From: Candidatus Omnitrophota bacterium
GTDB lineage: Bacteria; Omnitrophota; Gorgyraeia; Gorgyraeales; Gorgyraeaceae
Reading direction: 5' to 3'
DNA length: 60,946 nt
Assembly: GCA_042570105.1 (NCBI GenBank)
Contig: JBHPHW010000002.1
Coordinates: 1-60,946 of the forward strand
This document shows positions 7,834-54,501 of this stretch, one piece after another (the first letter of the stretch is position 1; every line of letters starts with the position of its first letter). Under the pieces are notes generated by a model, which had not been told where the DNA came from, searched no databases, and saw only the letters and a list, made by a program, of their open reading frames with translations. The translations under genes were made by a program, and so were the position numbers.

Positions 7834-7849
7834 CGGCCTTGCCCCCTTC

Positions 7850-8600: not shown

Positions 8601-8678
8601 TGGTAGCCCTAAGGGGATTTGAACCCCTGTCTTCAGATCGAGAATCTGACGTCCTGGGCCGGACTAGACGATAGGGCC
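8601..8678 (-). tRNA. tRNA-Glu (anticodon CUC), CCA encoded
   Basis: Hand-folded cloverleaf: acceptor GGCCCTA/TAGGGCT, anticodon stem TCAGA/TCTGA, loop TTCTCGA, T arm AGGGG-TTCAAAT-CCCCT. The D arm TCGTCTAG..AGGAC is typical of tRNA-Glu. Confidence 0.9.
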
Positions 8679-10070: not shown

Positions 10071-10080
10071 GGGCAAAAAT

Positions 10081-11553: not shown

Positions 11554-11572
11554 TAGATACAAGGAAAGTCTT

Positions 11573-12511
11573 ATGTCAAACGAAAAAATATTAATAGTGG
11601 ATGATGATCCTGACATATTGGATGTATTGAAAATAACGCTTGAAGACGAAGGCTATGAGGTAATAGAAGGGCATGATGGCCAGGAAGCAGTAGATATCAT
11701 TAAAAAGACAATTCCCGATCTATTGATAACAGACTTTAATATGCCTAAAATAAACGGGGATGAGGTCTGCAAAATCTTAAAACAGGACATGCTGATCCAA
11801 CACATGCCTATTATAATGCTGACAGGCAAAGGTGAAGTCAGCGACAAGGTCCAAAGCATAGATGCGGGCGCGGATGACTATATAGTAAAACCCTTTGAGC
11901 CGCAGGAACTTGTAGCAAGGGTCAAAATGGCATTACGCAAAACTGTCAGGGATCTAGATGCCAATCCTTTGACAAGGCTTCCGGGAAACGTCTCCATCCT
12001 CAATGAAATGCAGAGACGTATAGACAATAATGAGCTTTTCGCAGTCTTTTATATCGATCTGGATAAATTTAAGGCATTTAACGATAAATATGGCTTTAAA
12101 AGGGGGGACGAGGTCATAAAAAATACTGCCAGGTTCCTGATAAATTCAGTGCAGGAAAAAGGCGCGCCCCAGGATTTTATAGGCCATATAGGCGGCGATG
12201 ATTTTGTAGTAGTAACAACCCCTGAGACGATAGATGAGGTATGTAAATCTATCATAGCCAATTTTGACTCAATGGTGCCAGATCTATATACTAAGGAAGA
12301 CAATAAAAAAGGTTACGTAGTCGGCAAGAACAGGCTTGGGAAGAAAGAAAAGATACCTCTGATGTCTATTTCTATAGCTGTAGTAACTAATAAAAAGAAA
12401 AAAATAAACCACGTGGGAGAAGTGGGAGAGATAGGCGCAGAGCTAAAAGAATACGCTAAAACACTAAAAGGAAGCAATTACGTAACAGAACGTCGCAGAA
12501 AAACTACCTAA
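11573..12511 (+). CDS. response regulator: receiver domain fused to a GGDEF-type cyclase domain with variant GGDDF signature
   Basis: Start moved to ATG 11573 (MSNEKILIVDDD, AAGGAAAG upstream), because the track start at 11510 overlaps the kinase. REC motifs DD...D...K. Cyclase motifs LTRLPGN, DLDKFKAFNDKYGFKRGD, GHIGGDDF. Confidence 0.85.
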   Translation: MSNEKILIVDDDPDILDVLKITLEDEGYEVIEGHDGQEAVDIIKKTIPDLLITDFNMPKINGDEVCKILKQDMLIQHMPIIMLTGKGEVSDKVQSIDAGADDYIVKPFEPQELVARVKMALRKTVRDLDANPLTRLPGNVSILNEMQRRIDNNELFAVFYIDLDKFKAFNDKYGFKRGDEVIKNTARFLINSVQEKGAPQDFIGHIGGDDFVVVTTPETIDEVCKSIIANFDSMVPDLYTKEDNKKGYVVGKNRLGKKEKIPLMSISIAVVTNKKKKINHVGEVGEIGAELKEYAKTLKGSNYVTERRRKTT

Positions 12512-12551: not shown

Positions 12552-12637
12552 TGGTGCGCGGAACAGGATTTGAACCTGCATAGGATTGCTCCCGCTAGCC
12601 CCTCAAGCTAGTGTGTCTGCCATTCCACCACCCGCGC
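12552..12637 (-). tRNA. tRNA-Leu (anticodon GAG), long variable arm, CCA encoded
   Basis: GCGCGGGTGGTGGAATGGCAGACAC..., anticodon stem CTAGC/GCTAG, loop TTGAGGG; 86 nt. Confidence 0.9.
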
Positions 12638-12638
12638 A

Positions 12639-12712
12639 TGGCTGGAGGAGATGGATTCGAACCATCACAACAGGTTCCAGAGACCTGTGTCCTACCATTA
12701 GACAATCCTCCA
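12639..12712 (-). tRNA. tRNA-Gln (anticodon CUG), CCA encoded
   Basis: TGGAGGA...TCCTCCA-G-CCA with the U1:A72 pair typical of bacterial tRNA-Gln. Anticodon loop CTCTGGA. Confidence 0.9.
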
Positions 12713-31287: not shown

Positions 31288-34200
31288 TCACACATTGTCC
31301 AAATGCCTTCTGGCATCCTCAAATCTATCAGGCGTTAACCTTAATCCTTCTTTTCCAACCTCATTATCATGCACTGCGAGTAGGCTTATAAAATATAATT
31401 GCATTGTTTTATCCTGTAAATTATCTAAGATAATATAATGTCTATCTTTGGATGATTCAATATAGTCTTCTATTTTCTTTCTTTGGTCCTCGTTATCTAC
31501 AGCAATCACTGCCTCTTCATTGGCTTCGAGTTTACTTATCTTTTCACCAAGCTCTTCTAAGCCAACTCTATCTAGTTCACCTTGCTCAAATAGATTCCTT
31601 CCATCAAATAAAACAGGGGTTAGTTCTCGTGCCTCTCTTGAAGCAGGCTTCTGAAACACCCTGGCTATCATATGCCTCGTATTTTTTGCATATTTATTGA
31701 CACGCCATTGCCATTTTTTGTGCGGAAGGATATCCAGCTCTTCTAATCCTGCTGATTCAGCATCTCGATCTACATCTCTCTCTCTGTAAACAAAATTATC
31801 CTCCTGTATATCTTTATAAGTGACTGTATCTGAGAAATATATCAATCCACTGGTTTTGGAAAGTGTCCCAAGATTCCTTACAAATGTCATTCTTACCTCA
31901 TCCTGGAAGAATCTCTCAGCATTTATCACATAGCCACTTTTTTTTGCTTGTGGGAGGTCATGGTGTACAAATAACTCTTGGTAAGCGTATTCCACCATAG
32001 ATAATGGCAGCTGACTATAAACCCTTTCTGCCAGAACTAAATCTGCAGAATCTTGTTCCATGGTCTCTATCCAGGCCCCGACATAAAGCTCTGTATCTCT
32101 TAGTAGAGCAATATAGGCGTCGACTACTTCCCTGTAATCAGAAGGGCCATTGCGTATTTCTTCTATCCTATCACAAAATTCTCTCACCATGCCTGAGACA
32201 TCTGACTGTCTAATCTCTACGCGCCCTCGTAATGCTTCAGGGACACTATTATAAGCAAACTCCAAGGCATCCTTGTCTAAATCTACCAGGATTACTCTTT
32301 TAAATGCTTTCACTAGCTGACTTACCTGATTTGCTCCTGCACCTAAAACAATGGCTACACCTCTCTCGTTGTCAGAGAGATCTTCAATAACCGCCTCTAA
32401 ATTTTCCCGTCTTATCTCTAAATCTTTTTCATCATCTAAACCAGCAAATCCTCCTTTATACCCTTTGAGCCTGCGTGTCCCTTCCATAAAGAACATCTCC
32501 ATGAACCTATCAAAAGGTGCGGGTTGCTCCTGCGCGGTTTCTCCAGGACCAACCTTTTTTTCTTCCGTTTCAGTGTCGGAGGCGTCACCGGGGATACCGC
32601 GCCCTGCCATGTGGATTGGCGCGGCATCAGTAGCAGATGATTTGACCAGTACATACCCTCCGGTAGACCCCTGCAGTACCCTCACATGAAACCCTGCATT
32701 TTCAAAAGCAGGAATAAACTCTGGGTTTGGGGCTATTATACCAACTCTCACCAAGAATCGTCCGTCGGGTTTCAGAACACGGCTAATTTCCTCTGCCGCT
32801 CGTTCATAAAACGCTTTGGCATCCTTAAAACCTTCTCTATGCATACCTCTCATTCCGAAGTATTCCTCATTGAATAATCCAAAGCTGATAACTAGGTCAA
32901 ATTTCCCATCAGCAAAAAATGGCATATCTTGGACAATGCCTTTATAAAAAACTGGTTCAGAGCCATCCTCTATTTCTGGACTTAAACCAACTACATCTTT
33001 ATCTTGAGCCCGCAAGGAGTTCACGAGATCAGTCTTCAAAATTCGATACTTTGGTGCCTCTAATCCCACATCCAAGATACTGCCACGCAGGAGGTCTTGA
33101 GAGTCAAATCCAAGCTCATGAGCTTGCTCATCAATCGCACGCAGCAGTGCGTTAAGCGCACGAACGTCGGGACTTACATCCTGAAGTCTTCGCCTATCTT
33201 CTATTATCGCATTGTAAGTCATCATGGCGCGCAGATAAGAGAAAAGTATGCCCATTGGCTTTCCAGGTTTATATCCAGCTTCGATTGGTGAAAGCAGGAA
33301 TTCACAGGCGACCTTTTCAGCATAACTAAGCCCTGATCCTTTTATCTGTTTAAAATTATTTTCTTTTTCCCTTACTATAAATAACTTTGCCTTTATCCTG
33401 CCTTCACTGAAATGCTCGGCAACTAATTTTATGAATGAAGTGGTTGCCCCTGTACCCCAAGAATCTACAATTACTAGACGATTGTGTACCAATATGCCTG
33501 CGCGGTCCATCTGTCTATAGAGCTCTCTGGCAGCTCTTCTAAATTTAGGATCAGTTTCTAGTAATCCTTCGAATCCCTCACGTAATTCACGCTCAAAATC
33601 CTTAAGTGATAAATTCTCCAATCCCTTGCCTAATCTAAGCATCTCTTCTCTTACATCTATGTAATTGTTCTGTAGGCTTACATAGATCAAAGAAGAATCA
33701 GACCTACTCGACCCTGAACGACTTGATAAATAATCAGTTTCATAAAATGGGCCTGCATCCCTGGCAATAAAGACTTTATGTTCTCTGGGAAACTTTTCAG
33801 AGATATCCCTTAAAAGCCTAGGATACAGGGGAACGGCACCCTGCAATCTTCTGTAATCAGTTACGAAATATTCATAATCGGATAAAAGGCTCGCTTTTAA
33901 TCTTTGCAATTCTTCCGCAGTCGGCTCTTCTCCTCTCAATAACATACCAGCCAAAAATACAATATCATCTATTATGCGGTCTTTTGAAGGATCGCCTTTC
34001 TTAAGCTCTTTGGTCTTCTCTTTTAATTTCGCAAGCATATCATCTGGAGAAAGCGGCCTATCTTTAGGTAAATCTTCTAAATCCTTTAAGGTAAGGCTCT
34101 GGTAAAATCTATTTATTCCTGATTCTAATCTGCGGCGATAATTTTCATATAATGCCTTTATATGGTTAATATCGACTTCTTCTAATTCTTTCTTATAGAC

Positions 34201-37200
34201 CTTATACAAGGCTATCAAATGGACCAAACTAATACTTCCATACTCAATAGAGTCGACACCGGGAAGCATACCTTTTTTAGCTATCTCCGTTAAAGCAAAA
34301 ACTGGTATTTGAGATATACCGTCTCTCGTCACATCTGAGGTGCCGATTCCTTCGGCCTCCAACTCCTCTTCCTCTTCCTTAACCTTCAAATCCCTTAAAA
34401 TATCAAGTGTCTTCTCTAATCCCTTATCAGTTCTAAATTGCTCAAGGGCAGCACTCATCCATTCACCTAAAGAGGATAAAGTTATACTTTCCTCATCTAA
34501 GAGCCCATGGAAGATTGTTTTTATTTCATTGGGCATATCTATATTGAGATAAGCACACAACTCATCAACGCTTTTAACTTGCAGCTCGAGAGACGCAGCA
34601 TACTCTTTTCTTTTTTCCTCCCGTAGATACGACGGCAATTTGGACAATCTCTCTTCAAGACTAAACCTATCATTCGCCTCCATGCCAAACTCTACATCCT
34701 GCAGGCCATAAAGACGCTCTATACCTATTCTTCCTTCCCGGGCATTGTATCTAATAAGTGCAAATTCTGCTTGATTGAGTCTTTCTCTGGTGAGGTGAGG
34801 TTGTTCGAGGAGAACTTGCCTTAGGCGCTCTATTAGTTCATACTCTGTCATATTAAAAGGATTCTTGCCTTCTTGATTCTCGCCTTTTTGTCTAAGTATT
34901 TGGTAGGCCCTTCTTACATCTTTACCGCATCCCCTTAAGAATGTGTGGGGATTTACTCCTTCGGGTAGTTCGTCAGGATGCCCAGCATAATATGCCTCTT
35001 TTAGTTCATGGAATATAGCGATAGGATTATCTTGAAGGGATTCTGCAATATAAATATTATCTCTATCTCCAAAGCCTCTTATATGAGTATTGTCCTCTAT
35101 TAATCTTATCTCCTGGCCTGATTTTGTAGTTATTGTTTCATCTAGCAATTTTACCCTAGCTTCGTTTTTATCTTCAGTATAAAGAGTAAAGAGCCTCCTG
35201 CTACTGCGATACGGCTTATAGTATAATACAAGATCTCCATTCTCTTCCGTTGCAATAATATTTTCTTTTACCTGTTTTAGTTTCCCGCCTTCTTTAATAA
35301 ACAGCTTACCTATGAGATTGCCTGCTTTTGTCTCTTTAATACTCCGTCTTGCCCATTCTAGATAATCCTTTTCATATGGTGGTTTGGTCTCAGGGATAAA
35401 ACCTCCATGCAATATTTCCGCAACAATAGACCAGCGATCAGCAATCTTATGTTGAAAATAACTTAAGGTTTTATTATTAATGAAATGCTCACGATATATT
35501 TCGCTCATGAGAAAATAAAGCTTTTCTTTATCTCTATCTTCCTGTATAGCAGCATTAAATATATCGATAATTGTATCTATGTTTTGTTGTTTATACAGTT
35601 GGATGTGGACATTTTTATTCTCGCTAAATCCGACTTTAATAGTCGCTTCTGCTTCTCTAGTTATAAATGGTATAATTATATGGAGATTTACCTCTTCTGT
35701 GATTCCTTCTTTCTCCATTTTAGACAAAACTTTATCAATCATTACGTAGAGTTGTCCTTGCGGTGAATAAGCAACATCATCTATAATCACTATGTCATAG
35801 CCTTCTTCAATAAACTCTCCTATATTCTCTTGGATTTCTTCATCTTTACTTACATAAAGGACTTCCTCTGCAGGAGGCAGTCCTTTTTCCCTGGCTAGTT
35901 CATCAACCCAGGCATTGCTCTTTTCCAGATGTGTGGGTTCTGACTCGGGGTCCTCTTCTCGGCCTTCGGGTTCCAAAAGTTTCCTCCGCAGCACAACAAT
36001 ATATGGTCTACCTTTATTATTATCATTAAACTTTTCTACAGACTTCTCCAGCGCTGCTTCAAATTCTTCCTGATTAATATACGTGATATGATCTATAATG
36101 AATCTCGCAAGTTCTTGTAGCTTAGGGGGATGGGCAGTTATCCATTCTTCAGCTTTTTCTGGATCTATGGAATTATCAAGAAGTGGTCTTTGGACTACAG
36201 TTTCAGGAGAGACTGGTCTTTCTCTATCATTAAGATAAGTCTTGAGGATTGCTCTCCTGCTTGGGTCTGGCATTTTGAAACCTTCAACACCGACGTTTCT
36301 CTCTATTTCTTCAATGACCCCTAAAATCTCATTAATCCTACTCTCTAGCGCCTCTATATCATCATATGCAGAGATAATATCGTCGTAATACTCTCCTCCT
36401 ATACCTTGCCCTTCAAGCAAACCCCTGACGTGAAGGTCTATATCTGCACCTCCTGCAACTATTCTTAGCTTATCATCTGGTCTACTGGCCCTCCATGCGG
36501 TAAAGATTTTTTTTCCATCGGGATGTTTTAAGGTTGCCTTCTCAGGATCGGTCAAAAAACCAAGTTCAAGATAAGACAATAGTCTTTTTTCATGTTTATT
36601 CTCGTATGGGGTTGTCGAAACATAGCCTGCCCCAATGAAATCTGTTACAATTGACCCTCCCTGTATCAATACTGGGATAAGCGCAATGTTTGTAATATTA
36701 GTTGCATTATAAGAATCCCAAGGCACTATATCGCCGCCTTTAACAACTATTCCACCAATGTTACTCGCCACAACAGTTCTCATGGGCATCAATTTAAGAC
36801 TGTCAAGCTTCTCTCGAAACTTGTCTTGTTTCATAAGATCGACTTCAAGAAGAAAGAAATCCTCGTTTTCCTTCAGACCATTGAGTTGGAGATTAAGACG
36901 CGCTTCATTTAATCTATCAGGATTTTTTTCGCACAAAATAACTTTTCCTGCTCCAAGTTTAGCTGCTACCAAAGAAAGCATACCATCGCCTGCGCCCATG
37001 TCTACGAATCGTACTCCATCTAAGTCAGTTTCGAATAATAACAGCATAGTCACTATAGTATGTAGCCCAAGACTGTCATTAACTCCCTGCGTAGCAATAA
37101 TACTCTTGGATAGTTTGTTTACCAAAATAACATTATTACTCAAGTCTTGTTTTAAATCATCACTGAGTAGATCGTACGACTTATCATCTAGAAAGAACAA

Positions 37201-49200: not shown

Positions 49201-52200
49201 ATCTCTTTCTAACTCTTCACTAACCTCCTGTATCTTTACACGGGCAAGTCTCTGTGAATCGCTAAAGACAGCTCTACTGAGCTGGGTGTACCCTAATACA
49301 TCTTTTTGCATATACGGTATCATTGTCCCCCAGCCTATCCCTTCAAAGACAGAAAAATTGCCGCTATCCGTGATGAATTCCTCTACGGGGCCTTTAACTC
49401 CTGGAGGGACAAAATTATGCGCAACCTCATGGGCTAGCATGCCTATAAAAAACTCTTTTGAGAGAGGTCTTACGCGAGGGGTCCCTATTCTAAAACTAGC
49501 GTCTGTAGTGTTATAATTCTCGTCAAAGTAGGCAAACGTCAAAATCTTAATGACCAGAGCATCATATTCTTCCCTATCTAAGAAAGAAAATGAATTCTGA
49601 TAAATAAGTAAAATTGCTAAAAGGTGAGTTTTAAGCTCTCTATCTCTCCTAGATTTGGCCAAGAGAGTTTTCATGCTCAAATCTCTTCCTAATAGAAGTC
49701 TTGCTTCTTCTGAATGCTGTTTATTGAAAATCCCTTCTGTATCTAAAAGAAATGCATACTCTTCTTTTATCTTTTCTATTAATTTCTTAAATTTCCCAAC
49801 CCCTGTCTGGGAAATTTTATGTAAGGCCCTACCAAACTCAAAACGATCTCTCTCTAAGCTACTAGTTACTCTATCCTTACCTAAAAGATCAACCAATTCT
49901 CTAAACTCTTCTATGCCCATCTCTGAGACATCATCTAAGATGTTAACAAGCCAATAGGGAGCTACAGGATCAGGGCTCTTAAGGTCACTAGCTACTCTAT
50001 CTTTACCTAAGATATCGATTAATTCTCTAAATTCTTCTATACCCATATTTGAGATGCTATCCAAAATTTTACGAGCCTTATAGGTATCTTTCTCGAAGGC
50101 AATAGCTATCCTTTCTTTACCAAAGAGATTTTCTAATTCTTTTCTAATTTCATCTTCGGATATTCTATCCCTTCTGAAACGCTTAAATGTGCGACGAGCC
50201 ATGGCCCGAAGCCCGCCTTCCATCGACCTATCTATATCCGCGCCCTCGTGGGCTCTTTGTCGCCTCTTCCGATCTTCTAGGTCAACCTTGGCCTCTGCCA
50301 ACTTGCTGGTCTTAATTTTATATATTCCATCTCCCAAGATTCTTTGTACTTCCAATAAAAATCTACCTGTCTCAACACTATCCCCCTGTCTAATGCCATA
50401 TGCCTCGTTATCTGTAATGGCAACTGTGGTTTCGTCATAGCGTATATTGGCCAGTCTTGCAATATCAGCTCTCCCGAGATTATCATTTAAATCAACTTCT
50501 TTTTCCCACAGATCTTCCTCTTCCTTTGTAAGCGCAAAACCAAAGACCCGTTTTGCAAATATATCAGCGAGTCGCTCTTCCTGATCTTCATCTAGAGAAA
50601 TTTCAAGTTTCTTAACCAATGCATGGAAGAGTTCGTGGGCGTGGACAAAACCAGTTACTTTATGACTATCTGCATCACCGAGTTCTGGGGCGACTATCTT
50701 AAATGCCCTTCTTGAATTTTCTATATCTATTACTATTTCATTCGTATTAGGATCAAACTCTCCGTATGTAACCCCATTGCGCTTAAGGGGTTTAGCATCT
50801 CCTTCACCTATGTCTTCTAGGGCGCCGTCTGTATCAGGCAGAAATATTGCTATTCTCCTAGATAGAGTAACGGAAAGATAATCCTGAATTTCTTCCCTCT
50901 GGGGGAAATATTCTATAGGTACATCGCCTAATATACCTAACGCATTTTCTCGATGAGAGCTAAGCCTGTCTAGTATTTCAGGAATCCCTTTTTCTGCTCG
51001 GTCATCAACCCTTCGGTCAACCATAGCCCCGTCCAATTCTTCCTTTAATTTTTCTATCTCGGACAAGGCCTTGTTAACCAAATCTATCTGCCTCTTAATA
51101 GCCTGAATTTCTTCTAATCTACTAGCGGTCTCTGCAATTTTATCACTTTTTTCTGGATAAAATTTTTCAGGTACTTCGTCTAAGTTACCTAAAGCAGTAC
51201 TTAAATGACTTTGAAGACTAGCTAATGTCTCAGAAATCCTCTCCCCATTTTCATCAGCAATAGCTTGCTCTAAAGCCTCCTCTGCAGTATCTATATTAGA
51301 CAAATCACTCTTTACTACATCTATCCTCGCCTGAATAATTTCTCTCTCTGTCTGGTCTAGTTCAGACAATGCTTCATTGCCCCTTCCTCTCCCATCGCCT
51401 GTGTCTTTTGGGGTACTGAATACAGCTGACTCCTCCAGCATAATCAACTGTATTACTTTATATCTTAGACCGTGTGTGCGAGTAATATAGGCTAGTTGTC
51501 TTCTCCCTTGGCGCACCTCTTCAATCATTGCTTTTAATACAGAGCTGGGATGGTATTCCCTTTTTCCCTGCAAACCACCAAGAGAATCTAATGCGGCATA
51601 AAGTTCATCAAATGTATGCGCTCGTCCGAGACCAATAGTTTCTTTTATCACAGCGGGCTGCAGAGCAAAACGTAACTCTTCTTCTATTTTTTGCACTATA
51701 CGATCTGGGTTATCTATAGAATCTCCCTGCAACGGCCTAACACTCCCTGGATCAATAAAGACAATATCTCCGCGACGCCGACCATGGCCATCCTGCGTGA
51801 CTATCAAGAACTGGGCATCATCTGCTCTATAGCCGGCTTCTATAATTTTTCGTGCCATCATCCGCGCCTGTTGGATACGTTCTTCGGTAATGAGTTCATG
51901 CGCATCAGCTGTGGTCAATTGTTCGGCATGAACGCCTTTTATCAGTTCCATTGCGAAAGCTGGATTACCATTTACATCTACGACACCATAAAACTTCGGA
52001 CCTATGCCTAGGCGTTCATAAAGCTGAATACCTTTGATTTCTTGTAAAAAGTAATCCATTCCATACTGCCAATCATCTACGAGAGGATTGCGATAGACTT
52101 TAACCGCAACAACCTCATCGACACCTTCCAACTGAGCTTCAAAAATATCGGCACTTGACCCTTCGGTATTAATCAAGTGTGCTAAGGCAGCTGTTGGCCC

Positions 52201-54501
52201 TTGCGGCAACTGGGCCAATCGACTGCTAAATTCTCTCTGAAGTTCTACAGGCAACTCAAGAAAACCCATATGCTGAGGACCAAGCAATATGCTGTCTTTT
52301 TCTGCTACCTTCACTCCTGCAATACCAATCTGCCTCCCGGTAAAGTACTTTGCAGGAATATTGGCCTCATAAATAGGCCTATCATTTTCATCAAGTCTTA
52401 CTCTGGAGTATTCGACTTTGCCTGTTTGCGGATTCTCATATCTAAATGTAAAAGCCCTTTGTCCCTGGCTAAGCTTTACTGAAAAACCTGTTTGTGTTGC
52501 AAAATCCTGAAGGGCTGACCATCCAGATAAAATTCCTGCTATATTTTTCCTTTTATTTTTTAGGGCGCTTGCGAAAAATGCAGGTAAAAGGGCTTGCCAG
52601 AATCTATGTCTACCTTTTTCTATCTTTAAATCTTCTGGATCTTCTCCTGTAGCTTCAGCAACTTTAAATCTTATATCCTCATTCCACTCATCTATCATTT
52701 CATCAGAGGCAAAGGCCTCCATTACTTTTAAGGTCTCGCCAAGATGAAGCAATAGCTCGCTTATAGGTTTTCTTTTCCCTGACAGAAGAAAATGATAATT
52801 TTCTTCATCTATGTCTGTAGATGAATATGGGGAGACTACGATGTAGGAATAACCCCTGTCTCTTAATAGGCTGGTGATGCCCTTAGTGTGGAATCCTCCT
52901 GCAATGAGGGTGGCTACTTTTGCGTCTCTTTTCTCTATTTGGGAGAGGGAGTTTTCTACCATTGCAATGTCACGGTCTTTTACTGTCTTATAGAAATCTT
53001 CGAGTTCCTGTAAGTATGGGTCTATTAAAGAAGGGTTAAAATCTATGAAACTTGAGAGGTTGTATTTTTTAAGAGTTGGCTTCATGAAATCTTCAAAAAA
53101 CTTTACTTTGTGTGAAGCTCTATTTTCTAGATAGTAGTCTAACTCTTCATTGGAGACCTTGAGGCTAAAGAAGCCTTCCAGGAAATCTGTATTTCTTAGG
53201 GCCTTTGTGAAGGTCTTTTCCTCGGGTGTTCTGGAAAGAAGATTTTTTATCTCGTAAGTCAAATCCTCTATTTCATTGAAAAGCTTTGTAGAATCAAGGG
53301 AGTTTACCTTGGTGAGGTAATCCACAAAGTTATTGAGATTCGGGTATTTCGCAAGTTTATCCGGAAGATGTTTTAGGGCTAAGTCTTTTAAATAACTATA
53401 AAATGAGAAAGGCGAGATCTTCTGGTCTTTGAAAAGTTCGGATTTTACCATTAGACTATCTTTGGTTTTACGTAAAGTCTTGCCTGATAGAGCTGCCCTT
53501 AGATTTAAAACTAGGCCCTGGGATTCTTCGGTTATCCTCGCATGATCAATATTCTTTTCCTCTTCCATGGTTTCAGTTAGAAGCGTGATATTTTTGTAGT
53601 TTTGGGTGGGGATATTGAGTCTTTTTACATAACTAGTCAAGTCCTTCAGATATTCATCGGTCTTTATCGTCCCATCCTTAAAATCTACATGCCTTTTGTC
53701 CAAAGCGAGAAGCTCTTTCGAATATATCTTGGGTTTAAGTTCAGTAAGGGCCTTTTTGGTTTGGGAGATAAAGACCTGGCTAGATGCTGAGAACTTCATT
53801 ATCCGATTAAACTCTATGATATTCTTAAAGTATATGTCTCTATCTTCTATTCCCCAGATGAGTAGGTCTGGGTATTTTGTAATGGACAGGTATTCTTCCC
53901 CTGTCAGTTCACCTGAATCTATGAATAGTCTTGCGGTCTTTTCCCTAACCTGGAAATCAGGAAAGCTTGATACGCTGGAGGTATCTACTATTCCATCTGC
54001 GCCTTCTGAACATACAAGATCCAAATCATAGTCTTTTATTAAAAGTTCTAAGATGCTTGCTAGATTCAGCTGGGCCTCTGGGTTTGTGTGAAGGTCTTGG
54101 ATGTGGACTATGAGCCTATCCTTCTCGCCCTGGACTCTGGGGCCCTCATATGCCTCTGTAACCCTGCCTAATGTAGCTGGTATATATATACTAGATAGGT
54201 CTTTTAAAGATGCTAGCTTTATTCTATTAGATAGAGCTTTATCATATGTGGGCTTTTTGGTCTCTTTTTTCCCGGAAAGGATATCCTGTTTCTTCTGTAA
54301 AGTATCCTGACGTTCTCTCTGAATAGCCTTATAATTAGGCCGTTTATCTTTAAATAGACTCCTTCCTGAAGGCGCAGCATAACCTAGATTGGTAACAAGA
54401 AATACCTGCGCCATAAGGATGGCTACTACTTTTGTAAATATTCTCTTTTTACCTACTTGCCAGTCTAACATATCGTTACACCACAAAAAAATCCCGGGCA
54501 T
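31288..54501 (-). CDS. giant multi-domain protein (7,737 aa): anchor, 4x HExxH, 2x GHKL ATPase, 2x kinase-like, GH15-like, NTase motif, 3x MTase/Rossmann, beta-propeller-like region
   Basis: Uninterrupted 23,214-nt frame. Motifs were located by back-translating to nt coordinates (see findings). The true start may be ATG 54471 (MLDWQ...), which matches the start of the left giant gene. Confidence 0.9.
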   Translation of the reverse strand: MPGIFLWCNDMLDWQVGKKRIFTKVVAILMAQVFLVTNLGYAAPSGRSLFKDKRPNYKAIQRERQDTLQKKQDILSGKKETKKPTYDKALSNRIKLASLKDLSSIYIPATLGRVTEAYEGPRVQGEKDRLIVHIQDLHTNPEAQLNLASILELLIKDYDLDLVCSEGADGIVDTSSVSSFPDFQVREKTARLFIDSGELTGEEYLSITKYPDLLIWGIEDRDIYFKNIIEFNRIMKFSASSQVFISQTKKALTELKPKIYSKELLALDKRHVDFKDGTIKTDEYLKDLTSYVKRLNIPTQNYKNITLLTETMEEEKNIDHARITEESQGLVLNLRAALSGKTLRKTKDSLMVKSELFKDQKISPFSFYSYLKDLALKHLPDKLAKYPNLNNFVDYLTKVNSLDSTKLFNEIEDLTYEIKNLLSRTPEEKTFTKALRNTDFLEGFFSLKVSNEELDYYLENRASHKVKFFEDFMKPTLKKYNLSSFIDFNPSLIDPYLQELEDFYKTVKDRDIAMVENSLSQIEKRDAKVATLIAGGFHTKGITSLLRDRGYSYIVVSPYSSTDIDEENYHFLLSGKRKPISELLLHLGETLKVMEAFASDEMIDEWNEDIRFKVAEATGEDPEDLKIEKGRHRFWQALLPAFFASALKNKRKNIAGILSGWSALQDFATQTGFSVKLSQGQRAFTFRYENPQTGKVEYSRVRLDENDRPIYEANIPAKYFTGRQIGIAGVKVAEKDSILLGPQHMGFLELPVELQREFSSRLAQLPQGPTAALAHLINTEGSSADIFEAQLEGVDEVVAVKVYRNPLVDDWQYGMDYFLQEIKGIQLYERLGIGPKFYGVVDVNGNPAFAMELIKGVHAEQLTTADAHELITEERIQQARMMARKIIEAGYRADDAQFLIVTQDGHGRRRGDIVFIDPGSVRPLQGDSIDNPDRIVQKIEEELRFALQPAVIKETIGLGRAHTFDELYAALDSLGGLQGKREYHPSSVLKAMIEEVRQGRRQLAYITRTHGLRYKVIQLIMLEESAVFSTPKDTGDGRGRGNEALSELDQTEREIIQARIDVVKSDLSNIDTAEEALEQAIADENGERISETLASLQSHLSTALGNLDEVPEKFYPEKSDKIAETASRLEEIQAIKRQIDLVNKALSEIEKLKEELDGAMVDRRVDDRAEKGIPEILDRLSSHRENALGILGDVPIEYFPQREEIQDYLSVTLSRRIAIFLPDTDGALEDIGEGDAKPLKRNGVTYGEFDPNTNEIVIDIENSRRAFKIVAPELGDADSHKVTGFVHAHELFHALVKKLEISLDEDQEERLADIFAKRVFGFALTKEEEDLWEKEVDLNDNLGRADIARLANIRYDETTVAITDNEAYGIRQGDSVETGRFLLEVQRILGDGIYKIKTSKLAEAKVDLEDRKRRQRAHEGADIDRSMEGGLRAMARRTFKRFRRDRISEDEIRKELENLFGKERIAIAFEKDTYKARKILDSISNMGIEEFRELIDILGKDRVASDLKSPDPVAPYWLVNILDDVSEMGIEEFRELVDLLGKDRVTSSLERDRFEFGRALHKISQTGVGKFKKLIEKIKEEYAFLLDTEGIFNKQHSEEARLLLGRDLSMKTLLAKSRRDRELKTHLLAILLIYQNSFSFLDREEYDALVIKILTFAYFDENYNTTDASFRIGTPRVRPLSKEFFIGMLAHEVAHNFVPPGVKGPVEEFITDSGNFSVFEGIGWGTMIPYMQKDVLGYTQLSRAVFSDSQRLARVKIQEVSEELERDGLPIAWSALFRLSMEIAREEPGLEFEDFINMLLERYSQEIRTIGREEGVLAAETEGRRPRVPTIESSDPKTVKRNLMSFEYEDPSQDFLGVDMEHFVVAQRRLAKRILPPQILGEVLEKLGLSPELGGERAYPVIYRKLADGNYTKEIIDLINSDSEGNSTYADPRLGVSIVGQNPNPRAQGVYEAVSNSLDALGLKIGQFGKGVKQIVDWLEMSGTDRIDVFTSQASQAGIAYQLTILKDTKGQMYLQIKQIGVETFQEAAGEPYEQGTVVRVTTSEAIPRTDQDRDLEHRNSQAGIAEGVHRRFAYVPSVRVSTKTELDAKPQTVNGFEEKEVIVPSGIPRYRPEDSADRKVHVALTDNTITIVDNGFGMDSEIFSRMFVPEEGTKTPQPLSGEAAQVELTNVMVVHDPTLPHRISFARNGEVIFAPDATEDILEDATVPGGLMVEMGSLLDVPESRDQIIIPLDLKPGERSNFELAMEYAINQLINHPELSVASKARLINTIVVGLDSLVQGNENYAHVVRAIRANAQKGLTSAGLIEELRREGFVILPHNKQFAQVAIPEDKKVFFLHEHLFDWKGVINLKEIGAEVVPGFTLRRPLEEDRDREVELPLMVTTFTEEAVKGVTGYEASEDIWMIEDKLPIVETDRFIAIPVQLGARLLELAKKRVNPTVTLTEKEAKDFTSLAQLVNTLTAKAVVTSYEVTKPRENVVLAPQIDIEESIGEIDSDAVNGFNRFLREPPILGLEVSRPGTERIPTDSNQRYVLLENGDLMEIGTGEIVTSDVQAIEPLINGYYKLTTTEDNVTLDRLVKLEGGAMQKFGIGMDSEADIFINRKIGIILTSPGKKFAYLDHHPRVGEPRFYQTRTMIDLETGIEYCLETGFSVARGADEFSRTLYNYNLQFSQDGKYLTYLERSEEEGVNFIVVDLEARRQVLKENLFRAGIDYEIEYAINPFANVVFIKIPDIHGPDDVKVIDLASGFKRVVRYARTDSTGTYTSMIGRDGKMSVYFHDLGRLFTNDDFGGKQIISATTFWKDEETIFAIEIEGPHSFQIDTRSGRATLFSRPEEDEDHYSETFTRRRLLLFMGMKDRAMNLDIAFDAGFEHEDIDRLDPLQRLDRPCVYKHPDFELVIDNSYPDNPVAVNPETDRRLPYKGRIISHNWVNREERDFRQDFITFRKGSTATNYHIGGHKGEPRDKAELERYIRDGASTYEVILDMEPGHFLWSIPLDSGRSQYVVRQDVHPRSPMEVIPKTIAREAYPQVSFDGKYFLFSNPKTGDVAYYELQHVAPGDNTNKPIFVSGKKAFLDEKPADAPNRYVILEDEAGGDAIGDDASGVYIYDTETKSRVVLAQDYQQLRRINRDTFAGETEKLLNIFKIENGTIGGSRFYPGEEKPYIVEHSDELVVLGLVEHERVLDVRDMTYVPIEMDKRPEKVSISASGRFSVHKDPDGELVYYDHEEENPVPKVIYDGFYEEYLVHDLADVVIIKNMDGKYTLYNLSLGKLHLPAYDHIEIDSSGKTAIGVDTRWQGALHTIDLISGETLVNGAVKGIRLASDETGYYMIWEYGLSIGPRAYRYNPEGAEDNWDWFGKPEEVELPRFWESYDLGQKTIWDRERDETNYALTVSGGYQGHPPTSTVATASLIGSTLIKKWYAGSEFKVSVKDLETGMGPGNSFIGSGPLHAFGSLQGGQVWYRTARAEGSQAVLNVAILTGETFDFEEQEGLVNQTRTFILGRARDSLDYILIDGEGNVNDITSQIPFGFVPTEANGEYFVFVSPETGKIKYLTPHVISTSKDIEMEELSPEERRRQEQALEIWNAQIVARRDEFIAQARRSYRPFLELVPEEYRREIEQRVKEEIDKLYKVQQEAIQRRFQKAVQENQELDIDTPLPFDKFAQRMERIVQRLPGYLESVEGPLLQERFSLQKDFYLNLFIRLFEVSKNPNLKLSEEVTNEKLFEVLALDWQVDTQEQLDAVPLIAQLIIDLRELSYGQIELAEIKAMIEFLSYAASRGPPETIEIVTKQLGKILHAKPGVKERFLTTWRGAFRQIDHSILRRYLDDPDQPIALGDARPFAVFLTNDIAGQIRQELRVVPEGQDGRLPYGGIGTSQMVSLEEQRPKKDPDDVVMDIEYLLDRIRDDVEGREKLPPLLTTGEATVLRNATKQAESGASAREIPQNSKDAGAKELIVDFFLQLNELGQEEYVEEARDDGTGALQEVALLIPKSTKAIGEQIDLEGFYGTGKYTIFEGVDRLEIITKNEDRAFMFTYTVEKDTSGNPTSIRLTRIRRITDPSLMQGVTVRRIKIVSNTIPELDQMLSMRAWKSFAGLSQDDNFKIFFKDHEGEKGQLKVDYDVLSQTTFKAIRPGEGSSTSFGTMRIMSTKDMPVQVVSKAGFRVGEIKEEYLALIPSSLRDFIKELGIVIQIPLPLIRTRSGFEHEQEYLPVIQKYVAIEFYKAIAYKTLTQRDPPFVFEDFPSDWETNNQYWDSISYKDSMLVKLAENINQGRYEAVTEEDLSALVVKSGERDREKKLIRLLVLLEVSTDPSKPDERTSLFLRRLAIQQEINEAKARFQAETLEKLGLSTIKIPSLSDVPDSTKKLFQARALVTLDEQMRKIEDFIIDPGNYSDRDKELINLARPIVELLGLEQVILVSQDVVVNGVFTIYKGKSTMILNRSLANRLGQPGLSILDVATDAVNHELAHFGEELERTSNRDKLLEKGYVSHEAGFTHQPVGTFADNMKYVAARWLWLSNQELPAPDQEKPPLHFEALLLKGERNDINVSREVEARPERERILVRGVGIKDAQDKDVDVFEMTEGELDELKRALNLSEGELGALIHKAFSTLERSGITTDSIRDTKILIALLEENASKRLFEDHRENNFIGINRTFLDIAKENPELARILFTVGLAHELRHEAGLTEEDLQLDAEFFYELMREQGLGNKEFYEFRSALQNYLNTTDFIDTVESIIASRQKEASIRRALGNCKDNGAIVVTGEETHDYSNRHWVRDSSRALRMLTRLYKAADGVVSKDELRAKIDKLREFSRFGKGYAKYDAETGEPDLLWSPNPQHDGPALRSVALIEYCEELLKEGKIEQVKEIYSDIRLDLEYIVDNWHKKCFDLWEDILAHHFFTDKQMRAALVRGSKLATALTYNEDTERYKDTAASLKERIERYYNEEEGFIVSFLDPEELSSEDLNSAPTSLEYKNRQGLDISGILGSIYAYDVDDSVGRIEELDLREVEMFRDEYRHDQAWSKKVGVGFGIGRFPEDYYSGDTVVYEKRPEDEKGNPWFITTLGVSQYYARLARVFLERYKEGGNEDDRKKAMKAYERSTDFFRWSLAHIPLDGSMSEQINRDTGEPQGVRDLTWSHAEFVHAMMEREEFEEKLQGEPSLSRNLFWSILTDEEKRIARERIATLQELLPKIIDHIVPQYKDSIEAVYIIGSFLFKENPTDLDLVAIVRDEVDYHSKEGDFSEEMKGELRERLGINSRRMFCDIKIFGKDSMPSVQSRESMHSVYFSMVYSNGVLLSGTDLVIEPQYKDLIAKAKDLITPGNLMSVKGSFVALSTLMAQRTAGILKDVPPEHIREYMKLGILYDHATTLGEGRIREIFRIMREINAFQPIPPLVQQLIAKADDEIGRSVKARAVPFYSNQPGFTAKYLTTKNISSENLPYPTHMRDPKTAPVPHRIVDVNMPDDVDGVFLLGKEHGGSNSYVRLGYLEDGRPVAIRTHLLFNDFKEDVHKFVALLREYQGLQIADDLRSKVDSLELTSSETKDLFHGFLKDYQSALILDELGIGPSVHGIFVDGEGNPNIVMDVVPGDFPKVVPEFITAATFRDLRGIQDRLARRGLAIVDEDFQYYVTPEGRIQIIDPGSIGPAGEVDEFLLSLVDLLFLADTREIKIEALREIIEEEPALFSSIYDEVMTPGRWIHGGVREAIEEVRGEKPTLAERWDEDYSHKLSERIVDELALWYWRNWPPYRSDLRHKDKSYGRETWVTLSGIGFIRVGFLFFLDDKSYDLLSDDLKQDLSNNVILVNKLSKSIIATQGVNDSLGLHTIVTMLLLFETDLDGVRFVDMGAGDGMLSLVAAKLGAGKVILCEKNPDRLNEARLNLQLNGLKENEDFFLLEVDLMKQDKFREKLDSLKLMPMRTVVASNIGGIVVKGGDIVPWDSYNATNITNIALIPVLIQGGSIVTDFIGAGYVSTTPYENKHEKRLLSYLELGFLTDPEKATLKHPDGKKIFTAWRASRPDDKLRIVAGGADIDLHVRGLLEGQGIGGEYYDDIISAYDDIEALESRINEILGVIEEIERNVGVEGFKMPDPSRRAILKTYLNDRERPVSPETVVQRPLLDNSIDPEKAEEWITAHPPKLQELARFIIDHITYINQEEFEAALEKSVEKFNDNNKGRPYIVVLRRKLLEPEGREEDPESEPTHLEKSNAWVDELAREKGLPPAEEVLYVSKDEEIQENIGEFIEEGYDIVIIDDVAYSPQGQLYVMIDKVLSKMEKEGITEEVNLHIIIPFITREAEATIKVGFSENKNVHIQLYKQQNIDTIIDIFNAAIQEDRDKEKLYFLMSEIYREHFINNKTLSYFQHKIADRWSIVAEILHGGFIPETKPPYEKDYLEWARRSIKETKAGNLIGKLFIKEGGKLKQVKENIIATEENGDLVLYYKPYRSSRRLFTLYTEDKNEARVKLLDETITTKSGQEIRLIEDNTHIRGFGDRDNIYIAESLQDNPIAIFHELKEAYYAGHPDELPEGVNPHTFLRGCGKDVRRAYQILRQKGENQEGKNPFNMTEYELIERLRQVLLEQPHLTRERLNQAEFALIRYNAREGRIGIERLYGLQDVEFGMEANDRFSLEERLSKLPSYLREEKRKEYAASLELQVKSVDELCAYLNIDMPNEIKTIFHGLLDEESITLSSLGEWMSAALEQFRTDKGLEKTLDILRDLKVKEEEEELEAEGIGTSDVTRDGISQIPVFALTEIAKKGMLPGVDSIEYGSISLVHLIALYKVYKKELEEVDINHIKALYENYRRRLESGINRFYQSLTLKDLEDLPKDRPLSPDDMLAKLKEKTKELKKGDPSKDRIIDDIVFLAGMLLRGEEPTAEELQRLKASLLSDYEYFVTDYRRLQGAVPLYPRLLRDISEKFPREHKVFIARDAGPFYETDYLSSRSGSSRSDSSLIYVSLQNNYIDVREEMLRLGKGLENLSLKDFERELREGFEGLLETDPKFRRAARELYRQMDRAGILVHNRLVIVDSWGTGATTSFIKLVAEHFSEGRIKAKLFIVREKENNFKQIKGSGLSYAEKVACEFLLSPIEAGYKPGKPMGILFSYLRAMMTYNAIIEDRRRLQDVSPDVRALNALLRAIDEQAHELGFDSQDLLRGSILDVGLEAPKYRILKTDLVNSLRAQDKDVVGLSPEIEDGSEPVFYKGIVQDMPFFADGKFDLVISFGLFNEEYFGMRGMHREGFKDAKAFYERAAEEISRVLKPDGRFLVRVGIIAPNPEFIPAFENAGFHVRVLQGSTGGYVLVKSSATDAAPIHMAGRGIPGDASDTETEEKKVGPGETAQEQPAPFDRFMEMFFMEGTRRLKGYKGGFAGLDDEKDLEIRRENLEAVIEDLSDNERGVAIVLGAGANQVSQLVKAFKRVILVDLDKDALEFAYNSVPEALRGRVEIRQSDVSGMVREFCDRIEEIRNGPSDYREVVDAYIALLRDTELYVGAWIETMEQDSADLVLAERVYSQLPLSMVEYAYQELFVHHDLPQAKKSGYVINAERFFQDEVRMTFVRNLGTLSKTSGLIYFSDTVTYKDIQEDNFVYRERDVDRDAESAGLEELDILPHKKWQWRVNKYAKNTRHMIARVFQKPASREARELTPVLFDGRNLFEQGELDRVGLEELGEKISKLEANEEAVIAVDNEDQRKKIEDYIESSKDRHYIILDNLQDKTMQLYFISLLAVHDNEVGKEGLRLTPDRFEDARRHLDNV
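49740..50215 (-). repeat. in-frame tandem repeat (3-4 units of 114-126 nt) inside the giant ORF
   Basis: DNA units starting at 49861, 49987 and 50101 (ACTAG(T/C)TACTCTATC(C/T)TTACCTAA...). Peptide units are ILD(S/D)(I/V)S(N/E)MGIEEFREL(I/V)D(I/L)LGKDRV. Confidence 0.8.

Follow-up and report, generated by a model that had tools for sequence, protein, structure and literature searches.

The open reading frame (ORF) on the minus strand at positions 31288..54501 (23,214 nt; 7,737 codons from the first ATG in the ORF listing) represents one authentic gene of a member of the Omnitrophota, and its product carries about 15 different enzyme modules behind an export signal (Table 1). At least 10 distinct module types are present, each in at most two copies. 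What is new is the reading of this giant protein as a core with additional modules on either side. The conserved core consists of the signal peptide, a head domain, a first GHKL ATPase (GHKL-1), a beta-rich region, a second GHKL ATPase (GHKL-2) and an HExxH module. We favour, with middling confidence, a Sec-exported, modular multi-enzyme protein composed of this core and its extras, which would act at the cell surface or on a host or prey cell.

The analysed window is a single NCBI contig of 60,946 bp, taken in full. Nearly all named homologues of the head and of the central double-GHKL cassette come from Candidatus Omnitrophota/Omnitrophica, and the contig belongs to an Omnitrophota MAG. Housekeeping neighbours place the giant ORF in a chromosomal setting, and the same contig carries a second giant ORF. 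Independent translation of the frame gave one stop codon, the terminal one, against ~521 expected from base composition (log10 P of none, about -234); the remaining five frames across 31288-54501 contain 249-803 stops each, and GC content at the three codon positions follows a coding pattern along the whole ORF. The first-pass annotation, made from the sequence alone, had held that such a frame could not arise by chance, and these counts bear it out. No DNA tandem repeats were found in the ORF, and therefore it has undergone no recent repeat expansion. One could still suppose that adjacent genes, or DNA of different strains, were joined in frame during sequencing or assembly, and that no single 23-kb ORF is present in the cell. 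The giant protein is on record from this one contig only, and junctions outside aa 1830-4510 are therefore without confirmation from an independent assembly; moreover, aa 590-1830 (isolated modules aside) and aa 4540-7737 are matched by no relative, and in most relatives the ORF stops shortly past the cassette. However, joined genes with normal intergenic DNA cannot give 7,737 stop-free codons, the GC pattern by codon position is unbroken, and head and cassette recur within a single ORF in relatives. Furthermore, two other assemblies (loci L016 and L028) contain cassette-bearing giant variants of at least 7.1-7.3 kaa, and long reads have verified giant ORFs in Omnitrophota. We thus regard an artefact as extremely improbable.

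Met11 (nt 54471) is likely the true start, because the public gene call begins the same protein there (7,727 aa) and because MLDWQ-type leaders are seen again in relatives. The hydrophobic N-terminal anchor or signal noticed in the first pass reads as a Sec-type signal peptide, the only clearly hydrophobic segment of the giant protein in the hydropathy scan; a 19-residue Kyte-Doolittle mean above 1.7 was reached by one segment (aa 21-39), with three others marginal. In the head family, every complete N-terminus (47/47) shows an n-h-c layout with a small-x-small site before (A/E)P. Cysteine makes up 0.17% of the giant protein versus 1.04% of 23 neighbouring proteins (P ~1e-20). It is also scarce in the contig's second giant ORF, and the SurA-like chaperone is Cys-free; a SurA-like PPIase is encoded by the convergent gene downstream of the giant ORF. 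For the giant protein, a search for a shared C-terminal sorting element found none. Export is likely. The 'secreted multi-effector' suggested earlier is in line with the signal peptide, the scarcity of Cys and the HopBF1-like kinases described below, and we infer an effector role, although none of these features demonstrates it.

Table 1. Modules and motifs of the giant protein, with positions in the window
Feature	Residues (aa)	Position (nt)	Strand	Basis
Sec-type signal peptide	11-42	54376..54471	minus	MLDWQVGKKRIFTK-VVAILMAQVFLVTNLGYA/AP; hydropathy scan
Head	~100-590	52732..54204	minus	invariant QDxH (H138), SEG (E166), GGFH (H538)
HopBF1-like minimal protein-kinase module 1	~754-971	51589..52242	minus	K, D-x-Q, D-P-G all kept
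Duplicated coiled-coil unit	~1050-1215	50857..51354	minus	pairwise Z=13.8; 0/300 shuffles reach score
HELFH module, putative zincin-like	1239-1324	50530..50787	minus	motif
Three to four ~40-aa helical repeats (MGIEEFRELxDxLGKDRV...)	~1430-1590	49732..50214	minus	read from sequence
HEVAH motif	1691-1695	49417..49431	minus	motif only
Double-GHKL cassette	~1830-4530	40912..49014	minus	GHKL-1, beta-rich region, helical linker, GHKL-2, HExxH
GHKL-like ATPase 1	~1931-2260	47722..48711	minus	ExxxNxxD N-box, invariant GQFGKG, DNGxGMD G1 box ~170 aa downstream
Beta-rich, PD40/WD40-like region	~2535-3551	43849..46899	minus	weak profile matches
GHKL ATPase 2, Hsp90-like	~3919-4200	41902..42747	minus	E-IPQ-N-SK-D N-box, DDGTG, GFYGTGKYT
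HELAH...FTH module, putative zincin	~4440-4510	40972..41184	minus	family-invariant H-E-x-A-H and T-H
HELRH motif	4673-4677	40471..40485	minus	motif only
GH15 glucoamylase-type (alpha/alpha)6 catalytic domain	4767-5136	39094..40203	minus	DLWED and SEQ kept
Pol-beta-type nucleotidyltransferase (NTase) motif IIGS-x10-DLD	~5188-5237	38791..38940	minus	motif read from sequence
HopBF1-like kinase module 2	~5407-5708	37378..38283	minus	beta3 Lys replaced by Arg
PrmA-like class I SAM methyltransferase	~5790-6010	36472..37134	minus	Pfam PrmA 27.3 bits, cut-off 22; NCBIfam prmA E 1e-7
Phosphoribosyltransferase (PRTase)-like module	~6119-6316	35554..36147	minus	IVIIDDV PRPP-loop-like motif
Methyltransf_11-type SAM methyltransferase	~7130-7290	32632..33114	minus	PF08241 33.1 bits, cut-off 21.2
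Rossmann/MTase-like motif VLGAGAN...VDLD	~7371-7442	32176..32391	minus	weak NCBIfam methyltransferase match, E 0.08

The core occupies the first ~590 aa and aa 1830-4530 and is found in many Omnitrophota proteins, being in other genomes a protein of 2.4-4.4 kaa; head and cassette are joined in one ORF at loci L001, L003, L010, L012, L018, L019 and L035. Compared with core-only proteins, the giant protein carries two additions. An insertion of 1.2 kaa contains a HopBF1-like kinase, the coiled coil, the helical repeats and two of the HExxH sites; a C-terminal extension of 3.2 kaa contains a further HExxH site, GH15, the NTase motif, the second kinase, the PrmA-like and PRTase-like modules and one or two more methyltransferases. 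Beyond isolated modules, neither addition had a sequence match: a word-based search with aa 621-1830 returned a single partial match, and a metagenome scan with aa 4540-5160 returned no relative. Over the first 4,750 aa NCBIfam gave nothing further, and GH15 was the sole significant match in a single-sequence search of the whole protein against the PDB. The earlier remark that this architecture is known from no protein family holds for the full mosaic but not for the core, which many Omnitrophota proteins share, and giant multi-enzyme ORFs have been published before. The search for syntenic relatives that had been proposed led to one locus (L008), partly syntenic on the purD-sua5-glyA side, at which the gene is cassette-only/core-only (2,391 aa).

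The first-pass module map agrees with the tool results in the positions of the head, both kinases, the coiled-coil duplicate, the helical repeats, both GHKL modules, GH15, the NTase motif and the methyltransferases, and had overlooked the PRTase-like module. Support is strong for GH15 and two SAM methyltransferases (PrmA-like and Methyltransf_11) and good for two paralogous HopBF1-resembling kinase modules, all of them, like GHKL-2, backed by profiles. It is moderate for the two GHKL ATPases and the erythromycin-esterase/ChaN/Tiki-like head, with GHKL-1 and the head, the former 'His-motif domain', supported at the level of motifs and fold, and weak or motif-only for the beta-propeller, the nucleotidyltransferase, the third Rossmann module and the four HExxH sites.

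In the head, a long helical insert divides the alpha/beta core, and the His, Glu and G-x-H residues of the domain are invariant columns of the family alignment. Its 69 homologues are stand-alone (~40 proteins) or fused to varied cargo (~28), which elsewhere includes PGK, NagB, response regulators, HATPase plus receiver, and HTH domains. When the AF2 model (pLDDT 77) was compared using Foldseek, the top-probability matches were EreC and the Ere-like structures 3b55/2rad (probability 0.6-0.69; TM 0.18-0.26), at an E value of ~0.02 that is not significant. PF04187 was weakly matched by 5 of 33 family members (best E 0.035), and a search of the family profile against PDB sequences found nothing. 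The invariant His motifs of the domain first placed at 52850-54130 stand, and the model points to a putative hydrolase of the erythromycin-esterase/ChaN/Tiki superfamily. The head shares with Ere/ChaN/Tiki/TraB proteins the alpha/beta core with a helical insert, the conserved His and Glu and the C-terminal G-x-H; it differs in that its insert is much larger and that a signal peptide and a conserved box of basic character (RSxFKxKKVDY) always precede it. The His-to-Glu spacing is 28 residues, as in EreB.

Homologues of the cassette measure 2.1-2.9 kaa and were found at 37 genomic loci. The L001 protein aligns to the giant protein at 44% over aa 1836-4511 in a single segment, and one cassette protein (P0076) is identical across 4 assemblies; the cassette proteins that were looked up have no Pfam match on record. 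Both GHKL modules carry an N-box (ExxxNxxD) and a G1 box (DxGxG) that are invariant across the cassette family, as expected of the two GHKL ATPases proposed in the first pass; the resemblance between the two is no more than marginal (hhalign probability 14%). For GHKL-2, the cassette profile matched the Hsp90 N-domain in the PDB (E 6e-4), aligned at the G1/G2 boxes, whereas for GHKL-1 the Foldseek matches of the AF2 model (pLDDT 80), with Topo VI-B first followed by MORC2 and many Topo II ATPase entries, fell short of significance (best E 0.12). HATPase_c_3 was matched by 5 of 9 cassette-family members, the module not being resolved; the giant protein itself has no Pfam GHKL match. The region between the ATPases, described earlier as beta-propeller-like, lies where it had been placed and carries (S/F)xDGKY(L/F) motifs, but its profile matches are weak (Prp17 WD40, E 0.009; YncE propeller, E 0.026). 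One cassette homologue matched the Pfam NUP159 beta-propeller model, and the region varies in length, being short or absent in some homologues.

The two kinase-like modules were upheld, since their family profile matches protein kinases in both lobes (Fes N-lobe, E 1.6e-7; HopBF1 C-lobe, E 8e-5), the HopBF1 match falling on the catalytic D-x-Q...D-P motif. The aligned motif, which spans the catalytic loop and the metal-binding site, is D-[FL]-Q-[FY]-x-V-x3-G-x-[VI]-x-[IV]-x-D-P (Lopez et al. 2019, as reviewed in PMC9950578); HopBF1 is there a T3SS effector of ~200 aa, whereas here the module lies within large Omnitrophota proteins. Single family members matched Pfam Kdo, ABC1 and Pkinase. One member contains a Colicin D domain, which together with the HopBF1 motif lends the family an effector flavour. 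A functional link between the HopBF1-like kinase and GHKL-2 was considered because HopBF1 phosphorylates Ser99 of Hsp90 and GHKL-2 has the sequence PKSTKA in the aligned segment; it was rejected as a conserved feature, the cassette being present in 1 of 149 kinase-family proteins, namely the giant protein.

The PADLOC match to LmuB at the coiled-coil unit reflects coiled-coil similarity only. A segment 55% identical to the HELFH module lies directly upstream of the cassette in L024, and the HELAH module accounts for invariant columns H2633, E2634, A2636, H2637, T2664 and H2665 of cassette alignment A2. All four HExxH motifs are at the coordinates first reported, with 0.25 expected by chance. 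Searches of Pfam, NCBIfam and the PDB matched these modules to no peptidase family or structure, and no paralogy was detected among the four.

In the C-terminal extension, the GH15 barrel proposed at first pass was matched by Pfam PF00723 (E 6e-38; 131 bits against a cut-off of 22) over profile positions 40-425 of 427, by PDB glucoamylases (E 2e-29) and by the NCBIfam oligosaccharide amylase model (E 3e-23). The Glu residues of DLWED (aa ~4893) and SEQ (aa ~5120) are the catalytic general acid and general base, as in Aspergillus niger glucoamylase. The NTase motif gave weak Pfam matches (DUF6932, E 0.006; Polbeta, E 0.08), and the PRTase-like module was hit by Pfam PRTase-CE (E 1.6e-4, below cut-off) and PADLOC PRTase_III-A (E 3.9e-4). 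The PrmA-like methyltransferase was recovered by both Pfam and NCBIfam; of the two further Rossmann/MTase modules claimed, the Methyltransf_11 module scores above its cut-off and the last one is weak. No paralogy was detected among the three methyltransferase modules.

Under the favoured reading, the giant protein would cross the inner membrane and function on the cell surface or while touching a host or prey cell. Alpha-glucans would be the substrate of the glucoamylase; modules dependent on ATP, SAM or PRPP would be active only with access to host cytoplasm, and the HExxH modules may cleave the chain into separate effectors. That requirement for cofactors also speaks for a different picture, in which the N-terminal helix is not cleaved but serves as an anchor, and the chain remains intracellular as a membrane-tethered scaffold, its ATP/SAM/PRPP enzymes and a glycogen- or trehalose-type GH15 forming a regulatory or metabolic hub. 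The ATPases, kinases, methyltransferases and PRTase, most of the modules, require cytoplasmic cofactors absent outside the cell, and intracellular trehalases and oligosaccharide amylases are among the GH15 relatives. The cargo of the head elsewhere includes typical cytoplasmic enzymes and regulators, which fits an intracellular role too; the mature N-terminus is strongly basic directly after the hydrophobic segment, unusual in exported proteins; and 46% of long Omnitrophota proteins are 'TM-only' with a cytoplasmic bulk (Nielsen & Lui, 10.64898/2026.06.07.730766). However, the hydrophobic segment is short (~15 residues), a helix-breaker and the small-x-small site in every one of the 47 family members give the layout of a cleaved signal peptide, and the Cys depletion resembles that of the other giant ORF and the Cys-free SurA-like chaperone, unlike that of the cytoplasmic neighbours. 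We therefore consider the scaffold somewhat unlikely.

The giant ORF might instead be a packaging or co-regulation device, encoding a polyprotein precursor from which its own HExxH modules or a partner protease release stand-alone enzymes. The excess of HExxH sites, their placement between other modules, the invariance of one of them in the cassette family and the independent occurrence of modules elsewhere are in keeping with such processing, and self-cleavage by C39/S8 domains of giant proteins has been raised by West-Roberts et al. (10.1101/2023.11.21.568195). Yet the HExxH modules resemble no peptidase, are not mutual paralogues, and cleavage sites are not identifiable. We judge a polyprotein rather improbable; it is compatible with, and not exclusive of, the Sec-exported multi-enzyme protein.

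Against the favoured reading, no gene family is conserved beside the cassette genes across the 37 loci and the window, and the giant gene has no linked immunity gene, secretion system or translocation domain. Polymorphic toxin systems combine a variable C-terminal toxin with a cognate immunity gene, a combination that the giant gene does not have; no toxin family was detected at its C-terminus. By analogy with polymorphic effectors, the Ere/ChaN/Tiki-like head, together with its signal peptide and basic box, could nevertheless represent a hitherto undescribed export system of Omnitrophota, of the form 'head plus variable cargo', in which the cassette would be a new ATP-driven machine and the commonest large cargo. 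This bolder idea is speculative and probably wrong; if it were true, one conserved N-terminal module would deliver interchangeable enzymes, spanning PGK, NagB, kinases, GHKL ATPases and a 7-kaa mosaic, either to the surface of the cell or to the interior of host cells. Giant genes make up a large share of very small host-dependent Omnitrophota genomes, and most of their sequence is unannotated. The present protein is small enough for dissection, and its GH15, in which the catalytic residues are intact, one HopBF1-like kinase and the pair of GHKL ATPases can be tested as enzymes; many unannotated large Omnitrophota proteins could be classified by way of the head and cassette families.

Earlier work has documented both giant ORFs >20 kb and giant proteins of the 'multi-enzyme' kind in Omnitrophota. 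The giant ORF, at 23,214 nt and in an Omnitrophota genome, belongs by size and taxon with those of >20 kb described by Seymour et al. 2023 (PMC10066038), which it resembles in having few annotated domains, poor conservation and a small genome with host-dependent traits. The type example, the 39,678-aa protein of V. archaeovorus (Kizina et al. 2022, as cited in PMC10066038), is far longer and has dozens of TM helices; the giant protein has one hydrophobic segment and is without adhesin-type repeats. The 'Archaeovorin' class is based on genes >90 kb whose products have numerous TM regions and divergent SecA_DEAD domains (West-Roberts et al. 2023, 10.1101/2023.11.21.568195). The giant protein recalls it in combining domains of the glycoside hydrolase, methyltransferase, peptidase-like and HATPase types, GH15 and methyltransferases being present and the peptidase consisting of HExxH motifs only, and in a mostly unannotated N-terminal region. 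It differs in lacking the many TM regions, no SecA family was matched across the whole protein at E<=0.1 (Pfam, NCBIfam), and Pfam matched no glycosyltransferase or NUDIX domain.

Another counterpart is the Class 1 'multi-enzyme metabolic cluster' of Nielsen & Lui (2026, 10.64898/2026.06.07.730766), in which many Pfam families tile the chain and none is dominant, as in the giant protein, although its 7,737 aa lie below their threshold of >=10,000 aa. The PF08241 methyltransferase and GHKL/HATPase domains are among their commonest families and both occur here, and 80% of their clusters are singletons, the sequence of the giant protein being likewise unique. Text searches of that study turned up neither the head family nor the double-GHKL cassette nor the HopBF1-like kinases. 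The signal-peptide-only topology class of that study matches the giant protein, and Omnitrophota giant proteins have been read as extracellular and host-directed (PMC10066038; 10.1101/2023.11.21.568195; 10.64898/2026.06.07.730766).

The giant ORF (31288-54501, minus strand) starts with ATG and comprises 7,737 codons, the only stop in its translation being terminal. The coding strand's base composition predicts approximately 521 stops in this frame (log10 probability of none, approximately -234), and the other five frames across the same DNA contain 249-803. Furthermore, GC content split by codon position stays coding-like along the entire ORF, confirming the uninterrupted 23.2-kb frame proposed in the first-pass annotation; a search of this DNA for nucleotide tandem repeats found none. 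The more likely start is Met11 (nt 54471), judging from an identical public protein that begins there (7,727 aa), from the MLDWQ leader that this residue opens and that recurs on the other giant ORF of the contig and in relatives, and from the Shine-Dalgarno sequence AAGGAGG lying merely 1-2 nt upstream of the first ATG (54471-54501). Met11 itself has no obvious Shine-Dalgarno sequence.

Most of the enzyme modules named from sequence inspection were recovered. The beta-propeller, nucleotidyltransferase, last Rossmann and HExxH assignments remain weak or motif-only, and a PRTase-like module, matched by two independent profile libraries (E about 2-4e-4), had been missed. The GH15 domain covers nearly the entire Pfam model (E = 6e-38), matches glucoamylases in PDB (E = 2e-29) and an NCBIfam oligosaccharide amylase (E = 3e-23), and contains both the DLWED and SEQ motifs, which we take to bear the two catalytic glutamates of glucoamylases. 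Four HExxH sites are present against a chance expectation of 0.25; they show no mutual paralogy, and none matched a peptidase family. Both the coiled-coil duplication (Z = 13.8) and the ~40-aa helical repeats were confirmed.

Modules of the giant protein (aa) and other features of the contig (nt)
Feature	Position	Strand	Support or content
Kinase-like modules 1 and 2	aa ~754-971, ~5407-5708		good
GHKL-1	aa ~1931-2260		moderate
Beta-rich region	aa ~2535-3551		weak
GHKL-2	aa ~3919-4200		moderate
GH15 catalytic domain	aa 4767-5136		strong
PrmA-like methyltransferase	around aa 5821-5892		strong; exceeds Pfam cut-off
PRTase-like module	aa ~6119-6316		moderate
Methyltransf_11	around aa 7176-7250		strong; exceeds Pfam cut-off
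NTase motif			weak/motif-only
Last Rossmann motif			weak/motif-only
Second giant ORF	1-7869	minus	at least 2,623 aa; extends past left contig end
FIST / GAF-histidine kinase / receiver-GGDEF operon	8901-12511	plus	
tRNA-Glu(CTC), tRNA-Leu(GAG), tRNA-Gln(CTG)	8601-8678, 12552-12712		either side of FIST operon
Neighbours	upstream of giant gene	same	purM, purD, sua5/LMW-phosphatase, glyA, nrdR
Neighbour	downstream of giant gene	convergent	SurA-like PPIase
Other genes	further along contig		PolX, AhpC, RNase Y, ymdB, xseA, ispA, dxs, 2-oxoacid:ferredoxin oxidoreductase, gltX, tRNAs

The N-terminal head (~590 aa) defines an Omnitrophota family of 69 proteins (E<=1e-5), about 41 of them stand-alone (~560-720 aa) and about 28 carrying varied C-terminal cargo: GNAT, ParB-N, phosphoglycerate kinase, glucosamine-6-P deaminase, HTH, FHA, HATPase with receiver, or methyltransferase. 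All 47 complete N-termini display a signal-peptide layout, with a basic n-region, a hydrophobic core of ~12-17 residues, a TN-type helix breaker and small-x-small before (A/E)(P/E), followed by a conserved basic box, RSxFKxKKVDY. In the AlphaFold model (pLDDT 77), a long helical insert divides an alpha/beta core, for which the most probable Foldseek matches were the erythromycin esterase EreC and Ere-like proteins (E only ~0.02, TM 0.18-0.26). Weak ChaN/Tiki-superfamily Pfam matches were found in 5/33 members, and a distant Elusimicrobia relative has a family of this superfamily on record. The invariant His138, Glu166 and His538 agree with what we take to be the His/Glu/His pattern of the Ere/ChaN/Tiki superfamily, to which we tentatively assign the head.

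The double-GHKL cassette (aa ~1830-4530) consists of GHKL-1, a beta region, a helical linker, GHKL-2 and an invariant HExxH...TH. Its profile matches the Hsp90 N-domain at GHKL-2 (E = 6e-4) with the G1 and G2 boxes aligned. GHKL-1 has an invariant ExxxNxxD box, GQFGKG and DNGxGMD, and a Foldseek search with its AlphaFold model (pLDDT 80) ranked Topo VI-B first and also listed MORC2 and numerous Topo II ATPase entries, with a best E of only 0.12; Pfam HATPase_c_3 was matched by 5/9 cassette homologues and not by the window sequence. The beta-rich region gave weak profile matches to WD40 (E = 0.009) and YncE (E = 0.026) and contains PD40-like motifs. In other genomes the cassette makes up most of proteins of 2.1-2.9 kaa, one of which (P0076) has the same sequence in 4 independent assemblies, and a genome scan located it at 37 loci within ORFs of 2.4-4.4 kaa. 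Seven loci encode head and cassette in one ORF; at one of them, L001, these two parts alone form the 3,313-aa ORF, which aligns in a single segment over aa 1836-4511 (44% identity). Two other giant variants (L016 and L028) are open-ended, at >=7.1-7.3 kaa. In some cassette proteins (P0072, P0077, P0078, P0080), the Ere/ChaN-like head is replaced by another conserved N-terminal domain (FWVNLRPD...IGKILLEADLQLKKD...YYSLILAQW); thus, the cassette partners at least two alternative heads. Similarity over the last 200 aa links 43 large cassette and kinase-family proteins (P0073, P0078-P0080, P0083 and about 38 others), and may mark a sorting or binding domain; the C terminus of the giant protein does not match this cluster. 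Several cassette proteins end with a GG(I/V)(D/N)L... element.

The two kinase-like modules are paralogous (local alignment Z = 13, 0/300 shuffles), and their joint profile retrieved 187 proteins (E<=0.001) from 1.84 billion representatives, many of 2-7.5 kaa. A family profile of 31 sequences matched Fes kinase in the N-lobe (E = 1.6e-7) and HopBF1, a type III effector kinase, in the C-lobe (E = 8e-5), the HopBF1 alignment spanning D-[FL]-Q-[FY]...G...[IV]-x-D-P. Module 1 retains the family Lys, Asp, Gln and Asp; in module 2 the Lys is replaced by Arg. Kinase module and head recombine freely among other large proteins, and among 149 kinase-family proteins only the giant protein combines kinase and cassette. 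In the family alignment (A6), a Colicin D (tRNase toxin) domain occurs in one small member (E = 4.5e-21) and another member matches TCAD9, a conflict-system domain, which hints at a toxin/effector context. Separately, LLIPKSTKA of GHKL-2 (aa 3986-3998, nt ~42508-42546) aligns with IAKSGTKA of yeast Hsc82/Hsp82, a segment that includes Ser99, the HopBF1 phosphorylation target; the Ser is kept in the cassette consensus, and the kinase modules are non-conserved partners of the cassette.

Compared with head-plus-cassette proteins, the giant gene has two additions: an insertion of 1,240 aa that separates head from cassette, and a 3,200-aa C-terminal extension. The extension was matched at none of the 37 cassette loci, and from the insertion only the HELFH module was matched, at one locus (L024); a word search with the insertion gave one match, the kinase-family protein P0081. 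Locus L008 (JAYEMH010000002.1, 1-17253, labelled Candidatus Ratteibacteria) has a 2,391-aa cassette-only gene preceded by purD-sua5-rpiB-like-glyA, an upstream neighbourhood common to the window (identity 58% for PurD and 62% for SHMT). At this locus, small genes occupy about 3.6 kb between glyA and the cassette gene, a toxin-antitoxin-like pair among them. This partly syntenic core-only relative suggests a growth path: in the simplest reading, a conserved core would have gained modules stepwise, the alternative being that the relatives lost them.

Three observations favour export of the giant protein across the inner membrane: the conserved signal-peptide layout, a single hydrophobic segment, and strong Cys depletion (0.17% versus 1.04% in 23 neighbouring proteins, P about 1e-20). 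Cys amounts to 0.15% in the second giant ORF and is absent from the SurA-like chaperone. Against a simple extracellular role stand the ATP, SAM and PRPP needed by most modules, the basic mature N-terminus, and the negative outcome of the search for a linked secretion or immunity gene. Weighing these six points, we give an even chance to an exported, host-contact multi-enzyme protein; what goes beyond an exported modular protein, host contact included, we infer. A membrane-tethered cytoplasmic scaffold is somewhat unlikely, and self-processing of a polyprotein, which could overlay either export or scaffold, is rather improbable. The protein is on record from a single NCBI contig, of 60,946 bp, and the window is therefore the entire contig; with the frame open throughout, an assembly artefact is a highly improbable account of the ORF.

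The neighbours of the giant gene are ordinary chromosomal genes, and homologues of its conserved parts are almost always labelled Candidatus Omnitrophota/Omnitrophica. The second giant ORF has an MLDWQ-type leader and a Peptidase_C39 domain (aa ~711-789), in agreement with published Omnitrophota giant genes of the 'C39 near the N-terminus' type; it also contains YD/Rhs-like short repeats.

The architecture, for which the first-pass annotation knew of no protein family, is not categorically new. ORFs of >20 kb with few annotated domains and poor conservation occur in most Omnitrophota classes (Seymour et al. 2023, PMC10066038), and Nielsen & Lui 2026 (10.64898/2026.06.07.730766) catalogued 916 Omnitrophota proteins of >=10 kaa, including a "multi-enzyme" class, with PF08241 and PF02518 among the commonest families, singletons forming 80% of sequence clusters, and a signal-peptide-only topology class. 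The giant protein shares this phenomenon and multi-enzyme style but, at <10 kaa, falls outside that catalogue's threshold. "Archaeovorins" (West-Roberts et al. 2023, 10.1101/2023.11.21.568195) combine glycosyl hydrolase, methyltransferase, peptidase, glycosyltransferase and NUDIX domains with many TM regions and SecA-like domains; the giant protein differs in its lone hydrophobic segment and in having no SecA domain in a Pfam scan. In text searches, GHKL, erythromycin esterase and glucoamylase did not occur in West-Roberts et al. 2023, nor did ChaN/PF04187 or PF00723 in Nielsen & Lui 2026, and neither preprint describes HopBF1-like kinases. The present analysis contributes four elements: a conserved family of N-terminal heads, the double-GHKL cassette, kinase modules resembling HopBF1, and the partly syntenic core-only relative.
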